Positions 48,741-54,128 of a stretch of DNA of 64,000 nucleotides are shown one piece after another (positions within the stretch are counted from its first letter, which is position 1; each line of letters begins with the position of its first letter). The notes below the pieces were generated by a model. The model ran no database searches, was not told where the DNA came from, and saw only the letters and a program-made list of their open reading frames with translations. The DNA lies in the IMG/VR virus record IMGVR_UViG_3300031418_000005, positions 160,001 through 224,000 of that record. One strand, written 5' to 3'. The stretch is from a virus. The position numbers were made by a program, and so were the translations under genes.

Positions 48741-49124
48741 ATGGCAATCTCACTTAAAAACATACGCGACCGCCTGCAAACTGTGGAGAGCAATTACGCC
48801 ACCGGCCCCCGTGTTGATGGTCAGGTAGCGGCACAGGCGAATAACGCCCAAGACCGCTTCGCTGGATGGACACCGGGACAGTTGGACTGTGGCGGAACGT
48901 GTAGCTGGTCGTGCTCTAACGGTTGTTCGGCAAGTTGTACCAGTTGCTCAGGTACATGTACGTCGACATGTACAGGCAGTTGTACGGGCGGGTGTTCTAC
49001 CGGGTGTTCGGGTTGCTCAGGTTGTTCAGGTAGTTGCTCTGGCGGCTGCTCGGGTAAATGTAGCGGGTGCTCTGGATCGTGCTCATCGAGCTGCACTGGC
49101 TGTTCTGGCTGCTCTGGGCCGTAG
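48741..49124 (+). CDS. Cys-X-X-X repeat precursor peptide 1
   Basis: 49-aa leader plus 78-aa Cys/Ser/Gly/Thr core with 21 Cys; AAGGA RBS. Confidence 0.8.
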   Translation: MAISLKNIRDRLQTVESNYATGPRVDGQVAAQANNAQDRFAGWTPGQLDCGGTCSWSCSNGCSASCTSCSGTCTSTCTGSCTGGCSTGCSGCSGCSGSCSGGCSGKCSGCSGSCSSSCTGCSGCSGP

Positions 49125-49135
49125 TAGGAGACAAC

Positions 49136-49534
49136 ATGGCTATCAACCTTAAAGATATTCAGAATCGTCTGAATGTTATCGACGCCAACGCGTTAAAGAC
49201 CGCAGCGGGCGTGCAAAGTTACATCCGTAACAAAGCCACAAACAACTCCAACTTATTTGGCGGTCAACCGCGGGCGCACTATGACTGCGGCGGTACGTGT
49301 AGTTGGACGTGTTCATCCTGTTCAGGCGGGTGTTCGGGTTCCGCATCGGGAACGTGTGGGGCAAGCTGTTCTGCCAGCTGTACGTCTGGCTGTTCTTCAA
49401 CATGTACAGGGTGTTCTGGTGCATGTTCAGGTGGCTGTGCAAATGGTTGCTCCGGTACCTGCTCAACAGGCTGTTCGTCTTCCTGTTCTTCCAGCTGCTC
49501 CGGTTGTTCTGGTTGTTCCGGACCAATGCGTTAA
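49136..49534 (+). CDS. Cys-X-X-X repeat precursor peptide 2
   Basis: ATG at 49136 after AGGAG; 50-aa leader plus 82-aa core with 20 Cys. Confidence 0.8.
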   Translation: MAINLKDIQNRLNVIDANALKTAAGVQSYIRNKATNNSNLFGGQPRAHYDCGGTCSWTCSSCSGGCSGSASGTCGASCSASCTSGCSSTCTGCSGACSGGCANGCSGTCSTGCSSSCSSSCSGCSGCSGPMR

Positions 49535-49577
49535 GACCCGATGCCCCATTTAACTTTTTACGAATTGGGGGGTTAGT

Positions 49578-50701: not shown

Positions 50702-51607
50702 ATGAGTGAAGAAGCTGTGTCGGCTATTCGTCGCGACCCTTCGTCAACTCCAATGGAGCTGTCGATAGTCACCACCTCGAAGTGCAATTTAGATTGTAGT
50801 TTCTGTGGCGGTGTTGGGTATATGGACGTCAAAGACAGTGCGCGCGACGTCCAAAGAGAGAAGCTGTTTGAAACGCTGGAAGCCCATCCGACTATTCAGC
50901 AGATTAACTGGACTGGGGGTGAGCCGTTACTGGCCATCAACAAAATCCAGGATTTCATGGCTGAACTGAAAGAGCGCTACCCGCACTTACAGCATGAAAT
51001 GTACACCAACGGTCTGCGACTGACCCCGGCCCAGTTGCCGGTGCTTAAGCAAATGGATCGCATTTTCGTCTCGTTTGACGGCTATGCGGAATCCGAGCGT
51101 CCGTTACTGCGTATCGCTGAGGAGCGTCGCTACGATGCTTTCGAAGTGTTTGACGCACTGGACAACATCACGTTGTGGTCGGTGATTACGCGTGCCCAAC
51201 TGGCACCGAAACACTGGTTCCTCGACCTGCTGAAACTCCACGAAGCGTTGTACCATTACAAGTTCAACGGCTACCGCGTGATGTTTGATAACTTCATGCC
51301 TAAGCCGCTGAACCAGGATCTCGTCATGAACTTCATGTACGGGTACAACAAAATGCACGACCAGTTGACTGAGCTGAACAACCTTAACGGGTTCCATCAG
51401 ACGCTGAGCATCAATAAGTTCTTCAGCCAACATTGTGATGACTGTAGCAATCTGGTGTGGGTAAAATCCGACGCCACGTTTGACCAGTCTGACAATGCGC
51501 TCGATGTGCTTAGCTCAGGGTGTAATCGTCTGGCCGAAGTTATCGGGTACGACGCTTACCAGTATATCAATCGTGTAGTGCAAGCGGGGTTAAATCGCAA
51601 TGCGTGA
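50702..51607 (+). CDS. radical SAM protein
   Basis: CNLDCSFC (CxxxCxxC), TGGEP, YTNG, VSFDG; C-terminal CDDC...C. Confidence 0.9.
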   Translation: MSEEAVSAIRRDPSSTPMELSIVTTSKCNLDCSFCGGVGYMDVKDSARDVQREKLFETLEAHPTIQQINWTGGEPLLAINKIQDFMAELKERYPHLQHEMYTNGLRLTPAQLPVLKQMDRIFVSFDGYAESERPLLRIAEERRYDAFEVFDALDNITLWSVITRAQLAPKHWFLDLLKLHEALYHYKFNGYRVMFDNFMPKPLNQDLVMNFMYGYNKMHDQLTELNNLNGFHQTLSINKFFSQHCDDCSNLVWVKSDATFDQSDNALDVLSSGCNRLAEVIGYDAYQYINRVVQAGLNRNA

Positions 51608-52940
51608 TACTAAAGCACCGGCTCAAGAGCCTAAAATCACCAAAACCTACCAGGTGGTGACCAACCTCTCCTGTAACCTCGACTGTGAATATTGCTACGA
51701 GCGTAAATATCCGCGTAACAATAAAGTCGATGACGCAGTAGACTTCATTCATGCGTGTTTCGACCGCGATCGTCACTTGACCAACGTCGAAGTTATCATT
51801 GACATTATCGGTGGTGAGCCGATGATGCAGCCGAAGATTCTGAAAGCGGTGTTTGAAACGGCTGAAGAACTGGCGAAGCGTGATAACCGCGATGTCATCT
51901 TCTCTATCTCGACTAACGGGACATTGTTCGATAAGCCACTGAACCGTGAGATTATCGAGCGCTGGCGTGACAAGCTGTCCATCGGTGTGTCTATCGATGG
52001 CCTGCCAGAAGTTCACGACCGTTACCGTATCTTCACCACCACGCGTGAAGGGTCGTACGAAAAAGCCATGCGCGGGTATAACTACCTGAAATCGGTCGGT
52101 ATCCTGGAGCTGGGTATCAAGGCAACCTTTACCTCTGAAACCCTGCCGAAGTACGCTGAGTCCATGAAGCACCTGATGGATGTCACCGGCGGTGGTACCA
52201 TCTCGGGTAACGTGACGTACGAAGACATTCTGCCACGTACCATGGCGATGTCAATTGCACTCCAGATGATGGACGTGATTGACTACTGGTTTGAGAAAGG
52301 TTTCGAGAAAGACCCACGTAACCGTCTGACTCACATCTTCCCGGACGGCCTGGACTTTATGGCCACTTGGGACCCGGACTGGCGTCAAAAGCTCCTGGAC
52401 GACGAAGCAACACGTCTGAACCCGGAGCGCGTCCGTCCGTTCTGCGGCACCGTAACCCACATGACCTGCCTGGGCTTCGACCGCAAGATTTACGGCTGTA
52501 ACCGCTTTATGTCCACGGTCACCACCCGTCAGGCCATCGCTGAACTGCGCGGGCGTGAAATCGTGAACATCGACAACAATAAGTTGTTGAACGAAATCCA
52601 AACACAGTACACCAACTACCCAGAAACCTGCCTGGGTTGTCCGATGAAGCACGCGTGTGGTAGTTGTGCCGCGGCATCATACGAGAACGGTGACGGGGAG
52701 ATGGAAGACCGCAAAGCCTATCACGCTGAACGTCGCCAGTGTGGTTGGACAACCGCGAAACTGCTGGTTGCGGAATACTTCTACCAGAAAACCGGTACCA
52801 CCCGTTATACCGATCTGAACGACAGGTCACAATGCTACTGCGTGTCCTGTGTACGTGCCCGTAAAGAGGCAGCCGAGAAAACCCAATTAGGAGCACCAGC
52901 GAATGAAGTCGTTGCTGATTCACAATTTTACGAAGCGTAA
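51600..52940 (+). CDS. radical SAM/SPASM peptide maturase
   Basis: CNLDCEYC, IGGEP, STNG, SIDG...HD.YR; SPASM Cys set CG..C..YGC..CLGC....CGSC....C. Confidence 0.9.
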   Translation: MRDTKAPAQEPKITKTYQVVTNLSCNLDCEYCYERKYPRNNKVDDAVDFIHACFDRDRHLTNVEVIIDIIGGEPMMQPKILKAVFETAEELAKRDNRDVIFSISTNGTLFDKPLNREIIERWRDKLSIGVSIDGLPEVHDRYRIFTTTREGSYEKAMRGYNYLKSVGILELGIKATFTSETLPKYAESMKHLMDVTGGGTISGNVTYEDILPRTMAMSIALQMMDVIDYWFEKGFEKDPRNRLTHIFPDGLDFMATWDPDWRQKLLDDEATRLNPERVRPFCGTVTHMTCLGFDRKIYGCNRFMSTVTTRQAIAELRGREIVNIDNNKLLNEIQTQYTNYPETCLGCPMKHACGSCAAASYENGDGEMEDRKAYHAERRQCGWTTAKLLVAEYFYQKTGTTRYTDLNDRSQCYCVSCVRARKEAAEKTQLGAPANEVVADSQFYEA

Positions 52941-53493
52941 TCTTCACCTTGTTGCCGCGTTTATGCAAAAGCACGGCATGTACAACATCCACGCTATTGT
53001 GGAGCCGGACGCGTTCACTGATGAAGTGCGTCGTCTGTGCGTACGCTTCGGGCTGAACGTCATTCTGCCGCTGGACGGGGTTGAGAAAACCCACAATTCC
53101 ATTGAGCAAGTGGAGAAGCGTAATCCGGGCTTCGAACAGCGTGTTGCGGAATTCCCGCGCCACAAAATCGAAATCCTGCGTCGTTCTACGCAGAACCTGG
53201 ATGTGGATAACCTGATTGGTCTGGCGTTAAACTGGGCTGACCCGGAGAATCCAGACGCCGCTGACCTCGTTGGGATTCGTGTGCGTGCCCTACGCTCCAA
53301 TCATCAGTTCGATTCGTTTGGTGAAGAAATGCACCAGACCTTTGTCTTCCAGGAACAGAACGGGGACTTGGCAGAGAAGATGAAGTTCATCTGGGGGGAG
53401 GAGCTGTCTGAGCACTTCCAACTGGTTGACTTCGGTCTGCTGATGGACCTCGGGTTAGCAGGAGAATCTGAATGCTTAGTAATGACGAGATAA
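52903..53493 (+). CDS. hypothetical protein of the radical SAM cluster
   Basis: 196 aa, AGGAG RBS, overlaps both neighbours. Confidence 0.65.
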   Translation: MKSLLIHNFTKRNLHLVAAFMQKHGMYNIHAIVEPDAFTDEVRRLCVRFGLNVILPLDGVEKTHNSIEQVEKRNPGFEQRVAEFPRHKIEILRRSTQNLDVDNLIGLALNWADPENPDAADLVGIRVRALRSNHQFDSFGEEMHQTFVFQEQNGDLAEKMKFIWGEELSEHFQLVDFGLLMDLGLAGESECLVMTR

Positions 53494-54128
53494 AAGCCCG
53501 TTACTTCGAATTCGGTACCCCCATTGACCGGCATGGTAACTATGTTAACATTCTGGCGAAAGACGATGAGACCAAGCAGGGGTATTGTACTCTGCTTCAC
53601 TATCATCTGTTAAACGGGGTGTCCGATAAAGCAGCCTTGAAAAAGCTGCGTGACTACGACCTCAGTGAACCGGAAGCCCAGTTCACGTTGCGTAAGGCCA
53701 AAGAGTTTATTGAGAAGGTGCTGGAGCTGCCGCTGGATGAAATCCGCAAAGGCTTGACCTCGACGGTAAACTATCTCTATCAAGAGATTCAGCCTATCTA
53801 TACGCGACTGGCTGAGAAGTACGAAGAGGAACGTCACTCCAACCTGATGTTCCAGGGTGTGGTGTTGCAGGCCGATGAGAAATCACGCTCGGCATTAGCC
53901 AAATACATCCAGGCAGACATTGCCCCGGAGTATTGGGTGGATGCACAGAACAACCATCTCGATAACTTCGATTTGGCAGCGTGTAAAGCGGTACTGGCGG
54001 CGATTGTTGAGCGTGACGCCCAGCTGTTTGCGTCGATGACTGAACTTAAGCGCAAAATCCGCACGTTGGCCGAGGCACAGGACTTTACCGGTATTAAATC
54101 GGTAGCGACTGAGAACGGCTTGCTGTAA
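53472..54128 (+). CDS. DUF4376-like (tail-fibre-associated) protein
   Basis: C-terminal G...QAD..S.....W.DA.N......L...I.......F.....LK..I pattern. Confidence 0.6.
   Translation: MLSNDEIKARYFEFGTPIDRHGNYVNILAKDDETKQGYCTLLHYHLLNGVSDKAALKKLRDYDLSEPEAQFTLRKAKEFIEKVLELPLDEIRKGLTSTVNYLYQEIQPIYTRLAEKYEEERHSNLMFQGVVLQADEKSRSALAKYIQADIAPEYWVDAQNNHLDNFDLAACKAVLAAIVERDAQLFASMTELKRKIRTLAEAQDFTGIKSVATENGLL

Follow-up and report, generated by a model that had tools for sequence, protein, structure and literature searches.

Two radical SAM enzymes and three small proteins form a conserved jumbo-phage cassette with a proposed role in tail-fibre maturation

Radical S-adenosylmethionine (SAM) enzymes of the SPASM type carry seven C-terminal cysteines for two auxiliary 4Fe-4S clusters, arranged as C..G....C, a gap, Cx2Cx5Cx2-3C, a further gap and a final C. 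One such enzyme, PapB, the maturase of the ranthipeptide freyrasin, joins Cys to an Asp or Glu acceptor within C-x3-D/E motifs. In P2-type phages, the gene of the tail fibre H is followed by that of the assembly chaperone G. The NCBIfam CXXX system, composed of the maturase TIGR04115 and the targets TIGR04114 and TIGR04117, has been defined bioinformatically; our full-text literature searches returned passing mention of it only, and no experimental paper. Moreover, the SPASM enzyme CrpC of Methanococcus voltae forms thioether (ranthionine) links in the Cys-repeat protein CrpA, not in a peptide (PMC13692751). Here, we analyzed a 64-kb stretch of viral DNA (bases 160001–224000 of the 246,337-base record IMGVR_UViG_3300031418_000005; hereafter the window), in which eight co-oriented open reading frames (ORFs) on the + strand, at positions 48741–54128, encode three small proteins (pepA, pepB and pepC), the conserved protein unk295, two radical SAM enzymes (rSAM1 and rSAM2), the protein unk196 and a DUF4376 protein. 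In this cassette, a known type of radical SAM/SPASM maturase and Cys-repeat target is found in a new setting and a proposed new role.

Comparative analysis of the cassette led us to propose that pepA, pepB and pepC are probably fibre-tip proteins of the virion, cross-linked by radical SAM chemistry, and not a secreted bacteriocin. We read the small proteins as detached fibre-tip subunits because of the homology between the targets and fibre ends, and because the cassette lies at the place of fibre and assembly-factor genes. A first-pass annotation, made from the letters of the window, had already described eight tightly packed, co-oriented genes between hairpins at 48690 and 54145, including two radical SAM enzymes, the second of the SPASM type, and a DUF4376-like gene. 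All eight ORFs are indeed present, and both hairpins beat shuffled sequences. Both enzymes match the Pfam family Radical_SAM (PF04055) at 55.4 bits (rSAM1) and 54.2 bits (rSAM2) against a cut-off of 29.5, and the last gene (53472–54128, +; 218 residues) matches PF14301 over residues 113–204 at 37.6 bits against a cut-off of 25. Among named phages, the nearest are Stratton and phiEaH2, two jumbo phages of Erwinia, which share 87% nucleotide identity across the entire 5.6-kb query; in total, this query matched 35 records, 10 of them covering at least 80% of its length.

The 127-residue pepA (48741–49124, +) consists of a 49-residue N-terminal part and a 78-residue CXXX/CXX repeat with 21 Cys, and in the 132-residue pepB (49136–49534, +) an N-terminal part of 50 residues precedes a repeat with 20 Cys. 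Five or more C-x2-3 units in a row, closed by a further Cys, occur twice in the six frames of the window, inside pepA and inside pepB, and in none of 50 shuffles. In pepA, the repeat is conserved: 21 Cys are present in all 15 pepA orthologues (127–131 residues), with the first ten Cys spacings identical in each, and 20–23 Cys are found in pepB of 15 genomes. pepC (49578–49784, +; 68 residues, GTG start) is different, with 4 Cys in the window and 2–4 Cys in 68–69 residues across 15 genomes. The earlier description of three Cys-rich peptides thus holds for pepA and pepB but not for pepC, which has almost no Cys repeat and retains only the segment C-G-G-S-C-S-W-T-C-S-G-G-C. Its N-terminal part is of the same type as those of pepA and pepB. 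All three proteins start with M-A/V/T-I/V-S/G/N-L and reach an invariant C-x-G-x-C-S-W/F after 46–50 residues, and all three match the protein family phrog_6085 (E-values of 5.7e-48 for pepA, 3.8e-55 for pepB and 5.2e-27 for pepC). Beyond these three paralogues, the N-terminal parts resemble no other protein of the window. Within the repeat, the first residue after each Cys is Ser or Thr in about 80% of cases, the second is Gly in about 55%, and the third is Gly, Ser or Thr; the three-residue spacers of the 15 pepA and 15 pepB proteins are made of S/T/G, G/S/A and G/S/T/N, respectively. Against the TIGR04114 and TIGR04117 target models, pepB scores 16.3 and 15.2 bits (E = 0.01), below the cut-offs of 20 and 50, and neither pepA nor pepC gives a match. 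A cleavage site of the prohead-protease type in the N-terminal part was considered and dropped, as no S/A/G-x-E motif was seen there by eye, a check made with no formal test.

The window's own pepA, pepB and pepC bear no recognizable fibre domain. The same type of repeat is fused to tail-fibre proteins at four viral loci that encode the closest non-jumbo relatives of rSAM2 (L025–L028). At L025, Baseplate_J (E = 1.5e-29) and Tail_P2_I (E = 6.9e-21) genes precede that of a 384-residue protein, which combines an N-terminal tail-collar fibre domain (PF12571, 138.8 bits, cut-off 23) with a CXXX C-terminus; then come a 250-residue ORF, two radical SAM enzymes (a SPASM one and a short one, in this order), a 121-residue ORF and the tail sheath. 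At L026, a collagen-like 401-residue protein with 31 Cys matches minor-tail and tail-fibre families as well as phrog_6085 (E = 4e-12), and is followed by a short radical SAM enzyme, an unk295-like gene, a SPASM radical SAM enzyme and the tail sheath. The fibres of L027 and L028 match tail-fibre families with E-values of 3e-32 and 2e-40, and unk295-like genes follow them, too. Two of the three fibres of L026–L028 match phrog_6085, the family of pepA, pepB and pepC. A composition-adjusted BLASTP alignment (E = 3e-10) pairs residues 5–123 of pepB with residues 243–392 of the L026 protein and includes the whole supposed leader. In addition, the gene one or two positions upstream of the CXXX protein is tail-like or tail-fibre-like in four of six further loci (L088, L100, L040 and L036).

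The cassette is conserved as a unit in the jumbo-phage clade. Searches with tblastn found all nine proteins, namely the upstream fibre and the eight cassette products, in one order in 18 of 18 loci, among which at least two genomes are present twice, from two collections. These loci span Erskinevirus, Seoulvirus (SPN3US and SEGD1), Derbicusvirus (CR5 and EarlPhillipIV) and Wellingtonvirus (Kwan), and the small proteins and the radical SAM enzymes co-occur in all of them. The best conserved protein of the set is rSAM2, with 61–98% identity; the corresponding values are 46–88% for the fibre and 35–96% for rSAM1. In a wider phage collection, rSAM2 matches 69 records, nine of which are distant 'Bacteriophage sp.' fragments, and the N-terminal part of pepB matches 60. 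Counted by genus, the two sets of matches tally exactly over the 60 named phages, the comparison being one of tallies and not of accession lists. At two of the 18 loci (L013, at 2542–3453, and L018), an extra gene for a 303-residue rSAM1-type protein lies between pepA and pepB besides the usual rSAM1.

The first-pass annotation interpreted the unit as a pathway for a peptide made by the ribosome and then modified post-translationally (RiPP) that yields heavily cross-linked peptides, and named a modified virion component as an alternative. In the classical form of such a pathway, the radical SAM enzymes would cross-link leader-plus-core precursors, from which a protease of the host or the phage would then remove the leader to give an intracellular or lysis-released effector or a bacteriocin. 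The architecture of the small proteins fits this scheme, as three paralogues each join a conserved N-terminal part of about 50 residues to a Cys core of variable length and pepC resembles a minimal precursor; rSAM2 is of the SPASM maturase type, and terminators bound the unit like a separate module. However, the supposed leader aligns within the sequence of a fibre-like protein, tail fibres at L025–L028 carry the same repeat as a fusion, and the cassette keeps a fixed place in the tail module at every one of the 18 loci. Its cores are protein-sized, with 20–23 Cys in 78–92 residues, and the unit lacks protease, transporter and immunity genes; as the first-pass annotation had noticed, family scans found neither a protease nor an exporter among the eight proteins. 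Since the small proteins, supposed leader included, are homologous to the C-terminal part of tail fibres, a RiPP natural product is not favoured, and we consider it unlikely. What endures of the original interpretation is the enzymes and their pairing with Cys-rich targets, whereas the comparative evidence favours its alternative, a modified virion component.

The enzyme rSAM2 (51600–52940, +; 446 residues) has ten Cys that are invariant in 16 of 16 aligned relatives. Three of them (C25, C29 and C32) form the CxxxCxxC cluster motif, and the other seven (C282, C300, C344, C347, C353, C356 and C381) make up a full SPASM set. Searches against NCBIfam models placed rSAM2 closest to PapB (NF047865, 130.4 bits, cut-off 340) and to the CXXX-repeat maturase TIGR04115 (122 bits, cut-off 350; 117.9 bits in the genome search), in both cases near full length, with positions 5–345 of the 359-position TIGR04115 model aligned, but in both cases below the cut-off. 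Among solved structures, the best relative by sequence is CteB (5wgg, E = 4e-13, residues 21–194). Downstream of the SPASM domain, the C-terminus of rSAM2 bears an additional C-x-C-x2-C (window 52830–52860), which may be a further metal site; it is kept in the jumbo clade and the nearest relatives (P0076–P0079), and missing from more distant ones. The 301-residue rSAM1 (50702–51607, +; motif CNLDCSFC) is not a bare radical SAM enzyme. Besides the invariant cluster motif (C28, C32 and C35), it has three further invariant Cys (C245, C248 and C274), which may hold a single auxiliary cluster. As there are only three of them, rSAM1 is not a SPASM enzyme. Its NCBIfam matches include MoaA, QueE and viperin cores, and its homology to rSAM2 is confined to the core (hhalign probability 96.9). 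At L027, which lies on a 284-kb viral contig, a 686-residue protein (4155–6215) fuses an rSAM1-like part (match at residues 13–134) to a full rSAM2-like SPASM enzyme (residues 288–663).

A profile of aligned distant rSAM2 relatives (28–37% identity) was scanned against viral contigs, and at least 396 viral stretches were found to encode a relative, the best 80 of which were kept. In total, 86 viral loci (L019–L104), five of them from the jumbo clade, were examined for ORFs with a CXXX run. Such an ORF is present at 82 loci and lacking at L021, L022, L024 and L073; all 105 ORFs found (90 distinct) share the strand with the enzyme gene. With an unchanged query and scan, a set of one genome per bacterial species gave a CXXX-run ORF at 8 of 80 loci, although these bacterial-genome matches are more distant than the viral ones and include other SPASM families. 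That the bacterial set mixes in other maturase families is evident from L142, where a SCIFF-type six-Cys peptide (5515–5667) lies beside a SPASM enzyme. The TIGR04115 cut-off is passed by seven of the eight viral enzymes tested (389–494 bits), and the scores of others range down to the 122 bits of the window's enzyme. This gradient indicates that rSAM2 of the window is a divergent branch of a family common in phages. A match to phrog_6085 at E ≤ 1e-5 is given by 16 of the 30 CXXX proteins taken as representatives. Beside canonical TIGR04115 enzymes, there are also much larger CXXX proteins with 82–92 Cys (L088, 3188–4477; L104, 2756–4195; L080, 3515–4786), and many CXXX proteins of the viral contigs with canonical enzymes share an N-terminal domain of about 105 residues (F..LK..V..E..RR). 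Proteins of about 670 residues with 112–122 Cys in CXXX spacing adjoin the closest bacterial-genome relatives of the enzyme, in two Margulisbacteria-type bins (L108, 3366–5381; L109, 3060–5063).

A fibre tip that binds metal or iron–sulfur clusters, with the radical SAM enzymes making some other change, such as the conversion of Cys to formylglycine as in anSME or an epimerization, would also agree with a repeat of one Cys per four residues with small side chains between. The tip of the T4 long fibre is lined by metal ions, and anSME-type families match rSAM2 too (65.6 bits; 4k37). The authors of the CrpA study suspect metal binding in their protein (PMC13692751). Nevertheless, the anSME-type match covers residues 22–167 only, whereas the best full-length matches are thioether-forming maturase families, and simple chelation would not need the SPASM pairing seen at 82 of the 86 viral loci. 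We therefore regard a metal-binding tip as rather improbable, slightly more so than the RiPP pathway.

The protein unk295 (49798–50685, +; 295 residues) matches phrog_8030 (E = 8e-158). Its AlphaFold2 model (mean predicted local distance difference test score, pLDDT, 85.1) has no known fold: Foldseek gave no match in the PDB at E ≤ 0.001, the best Z-score in a wide VIA comparison was 4.5, BFVD gave only a 100%-identical uncharacterized protein of Erwinia phage vB_EamM_Asesino, and the best ESM Atlas score, 0.83, lies under the useful range. No match resembling a RiPP recognition element (RRE) or a protease was seen in these fold searches, in which weak matches would not exclude one. A hidden Markov model (HMM) of unk295 matches proteins at L026, L027, L028 and L032 (E = 2e-8 to 3e-6), and its C-terminal helical half recurs next to fibre-fused CXXX systems. 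For a predicted complex of unk295 with residues 1–75 of pepB, the score was 0.00 (mark 0.32); run with no controls, this speaks neither for nor against binding. The second protein without an assignment in the first-pass annotation, unk196 (52903–53493, +; 196 residues), is present as described, and its AlphaFold2 model (pLDDT 85.6) is now seen to be a partial TIM barrel without a cluster motif. VIA aligned the model to 3can (Z = 8.8, root-mean-square deviation 3.3, 146 aligned residues), SuiB (8.2), anSME (7.8) and CteB (7.2), and Foldseek E-values were about 1e-3. The predicted fold may resemble a radical SAM core lacking the cluster motif, though generic barrels score like the radical SAM cores (designed TIM barrel, 8.4; OMP decarboxylase, 7.9). 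Among the 86 viral loci, matches of the unk196 HMM are confined to the five of the jumbo clade.

These accessory genes bear on the further possibility that the module acts in assembly only, as a transient scaffold or chaperone for folding of the giant fibre that is missing from the finished particle. The cassette lies where P2-like phages encode the fibre chaperone, its DUF4376 gene is coupled to it, and unk295 has no enzyme-like fold. At L025–L028, however, the repeat belongs to the fibre polypeptide itself, and neither 21 invariant Cys nor a pair of radical enzymes would be needed in a chaperone, so that a role restricted to assembly seems quite unlikely. Least probable, and already disfavoured, is the absence of any functional link, with the radical SAM enzymes serving nucleotide or cofactor metabolism and the Cys-rich ORFs unrelated or untranslated: rSAM1 does match MoaA, QueE and viperin cores and several deposited records do annotate other frames over the small ORFs, but a Shine–Dalgarno-like stretch precedes each ORF, the Cys count is kept despite the divergence of neighbouring proteins such as the fibre (46–88% identity), enzyme and leader have the same genus tallies over 60 records, and 105 of 105 CXXX ORFs share the strand of the enzyme.

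Returning to cross-linked fibre-tip proteins as the most probable products, we propose a putative model for the cassette. The unit would act in tail-fibre maturation, with pepA, pepB and pepC as the detached counterpart of the Cys-repeat C-terminal tip that is fused to the fibre in other phages. After translation, rSAM2 would install covalent crosslinks along the C-x-x-x repeat, most likely thioethers from Cys sulfur to carbon, with CrpC and CrpA as a published precedent for thioethers in a Cys-repeat protein, and the crosslinked repeat would form a compact and chemically robust domain. Because particles are built in the reducing cytoplasm, where disulfides cannot form, thioethers might provide irreversible stapling. 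A second radical modification might be added by rSAM1, possibly at the invariant C-x-G-x-C-S-W start kept even by pepC. As unk295 is encoded at the place of the fibre assembly chaperone of P2-type phages, it may be an accessory factor, possibly a chaperone or substrate presenter. The N-terminal parts of about 50 residues would be remnants of a fibre shaft that dock the small proteins on the fibre, plausibly on the product of the gene directly upstream, fib399 (47475–48674, +). This 399-residue coiled-coil virion structural or fibre protein, a candidate carrier by its context only, matches phrog_2163 ('virion structural protein', E = 1.8e-109), and its homologue in SPN3US is gp167, annotated as 'putative virion structural protein 20'. 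More tentatively, radical SAM/SPASM enzymes might staple a Cys-repeat tip onto the fibres of many tailed phages, in a range that reaches from P2-like prophages to jumbo phages of 240 kb, as a covalent hardening of the receptor-binding apparatus that needs no disulfides; the TIGR04115/TIGR04114 pair might then serve mainly in virion maturation, and the jumbo tip might consist of the three subunits A, B and C on the fibre.

Several observations weigh against these proposals. For every member of the family, we infer the crosslink chemistry from family resemblance only, and the scores of rSAM2 itself fall far short of the curated cut-offs for its two nearest families, PapB and TIGR04115. The repeat offers no acidic acceptor of the PapB type, as neither Asp nor Glu is among the seven commonest residues at any spacer position of the 15 pepA and 15 pepB proteins. 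The N-terminal parts look leader-like, and a set of three paralogues would be typical of a RiPP cluster. Evidence for fusion to fibres comes from a few loci: recognizable tail-fibre domains are present in only about 5 of the 30 representative CXXX proteins, BLASTP gave no significant alignment of pepA with the L027 fibre, and the phrog_6085 matches may partly reflect composition. Of the two remaining loci with inspected upstream neighbours, L048 has one that matches a family labelled 'head protein', and those of L104 gave no informative match. There is redundancy among the viral loci, many of which stem from a single metagenome. Finally, SPN3US gp161–gp167 go unmentioned in the main text of two virion proteomics studies (PMC5105663 and PMC5694885), the tables of which are placed in supplements.

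The annotation of the reference genomes bears on the last point. In phiEaH2, gp087 and gp088 lie in the wrong frame over the small-protein ORFs; the SPN3US record has gp166 mis-framed and lacks any annotation of pepA and pepC; and genes 169 and 170 of SEGD1 are in the wrong frame. The mis-annotated pepA/pepB regions are at 6133–6926 of L001 (phiEaH2), 3097–4123 of L003 (SPN3US) and 4089–4895 of L002 (SEGD1). Because the ORFs are absent or mis-framed there, proteomic searches on the deposited records could not have found pepA, pepB or pepC. Compared with SPN3US, moreover, SEGD1 has a frameshift that splits pepA, with the N-terminal part (4089–4232) and the Cys repeat (4184–4477) in different frames.

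If correct, the proposed model would add radical-mediated crosslinks in the organelle of host recognition, a post-translational chemistry not described for virus particles, and would assign a function and a biological context to an orphan family of radical SAM enzymes and targets catalogued by sequence only. The presence of two radical SAM genes in the core gene set of the SPN3US/phiEaH2 group, jumbo phages in use for biocontrol and as models, would also find an explanation. The absent or mis-framed annotations are a blind spot of existing virion proteomics. Naturally stapled protein rods or knots made in the cytoplasm would be material for protein engineering. A genetic system for testing is at hand in the amber mutants of SPN3US (PMC5105663).

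Details of the layout are as follows. The unit is compact, with gene overlaps of 8 nucleotides (rSAM1/rSAM2), 38 nucleotides (rSAM2/unk196) and 22 nucleotides (unk196/DUF4376), the last pair being translationally coupled. Purine-rich stretches resembling Shine–Dalgarno sequences precede each ORF, and the start of pepB is the ATG at 49136, with AGGAG 8 nucleotides upstream, not the GTG at 49067. Between the fibre gene and pepA, a terminator-like hairpin (48690–48717, +) has a stem of 11 pairs, interrupted by one bulge, and a U-run after it (−19.5 kcal/mol, z = −3.54; 1 of 200 shuffles equally good). The unit is closed by a bidirectional terminator-like hairpin (54145–54173) with an 11-pair stem and T-runs on both strands (−22.1 kcal/mol, z = −4.87; 0 of 200 shuffles). 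Metatranscriptome contigs from two wastewater libraries of one study match pieces of the unit with at least 99% identity, including 48595–48929 and 49207–49357; DNA carry-over is possible, and the matches give no expression level. The best matches of the stretch 47475–54128 are phyllosphere metagenomes, and one 147-kb contig of a sequencing run holds all of it with 18 differences. Directly downstream are the genes of two paralogous DUF7941 proteins (PF25613, 51 and 33 bits; 54183–54689 and 54758–55294, both −), one of which also matches virion structural protein families of PHROGs. Nearby genes encode a DUF1353 protein (56065–56706, −), to which related RefSeq records give the label 'tail assembly chaperone', as well as a GH108/PG_binding_3 endolysin (56870–57469, −).

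Full-text literature searches for a paper on the cassette, or on radical SAM modification of phage tail fibres, found none; two texts that join tail fiber, SPASM, radical SAM and phage (PMC7159879 and PMC12579225) are, in their available parts, unrelated. The known systems closest to the cassette include the CXXX system of NCBIfam, with which it shares a SPASM enzyme beside long C-x-x-x repeats of small residues; pepA and pepB are encoded 1.6–2.9 kb upstream of rSAM2 on the same strand. The cassette differs from it by a second radical SAM enzyme, unk295, unk196 and the DUF4376 protein, and the phage tail-fibre context, seen here for canonical members too, is not in the family description as far as that is visible. 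Similar to PapB, the top NCBIfam model of rSAM2, the window's enzyme is a short SPASM enzyme without an N-terminal RRE, but it falls under the PapB cut-off, and its substrate is protein-sized with spacers that have no acidic residue. The CrpC/CrpA system (TIGR04463) likewise pairs a SPASM enzyme with a Cys-repeat protein whose leader-like N-terminus is common to paralogues; in contrast, rSAM2 reaches 52.5 bits against a cut-off of 525 and matches in the N-terminal core only, and CrpC has an RRE, acts on C-x-x-Q/D motifs and is cellular rather than viral (PMC13692751). CteB, the SCIFF maturase (5wgg and 5why), is thioether-forming and the closest solved structure to rSAM2 by sequence; yet it has an N-terminal RRE and a six-Cys peptide substrate of 45 residues, and only its core aligns well. 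Finally, the CXXX-tipped fibre and accessory genes of L025, located between Baseplate_J/Tail_P2_I and the sheath, occupy the place expected of a fibre and its chaperone, as H and G do in P2, but here radical SAM enzymes and a Cys-repeat tip replace the simple chaperone, an arrangement of which nothing similar has been described for P2.

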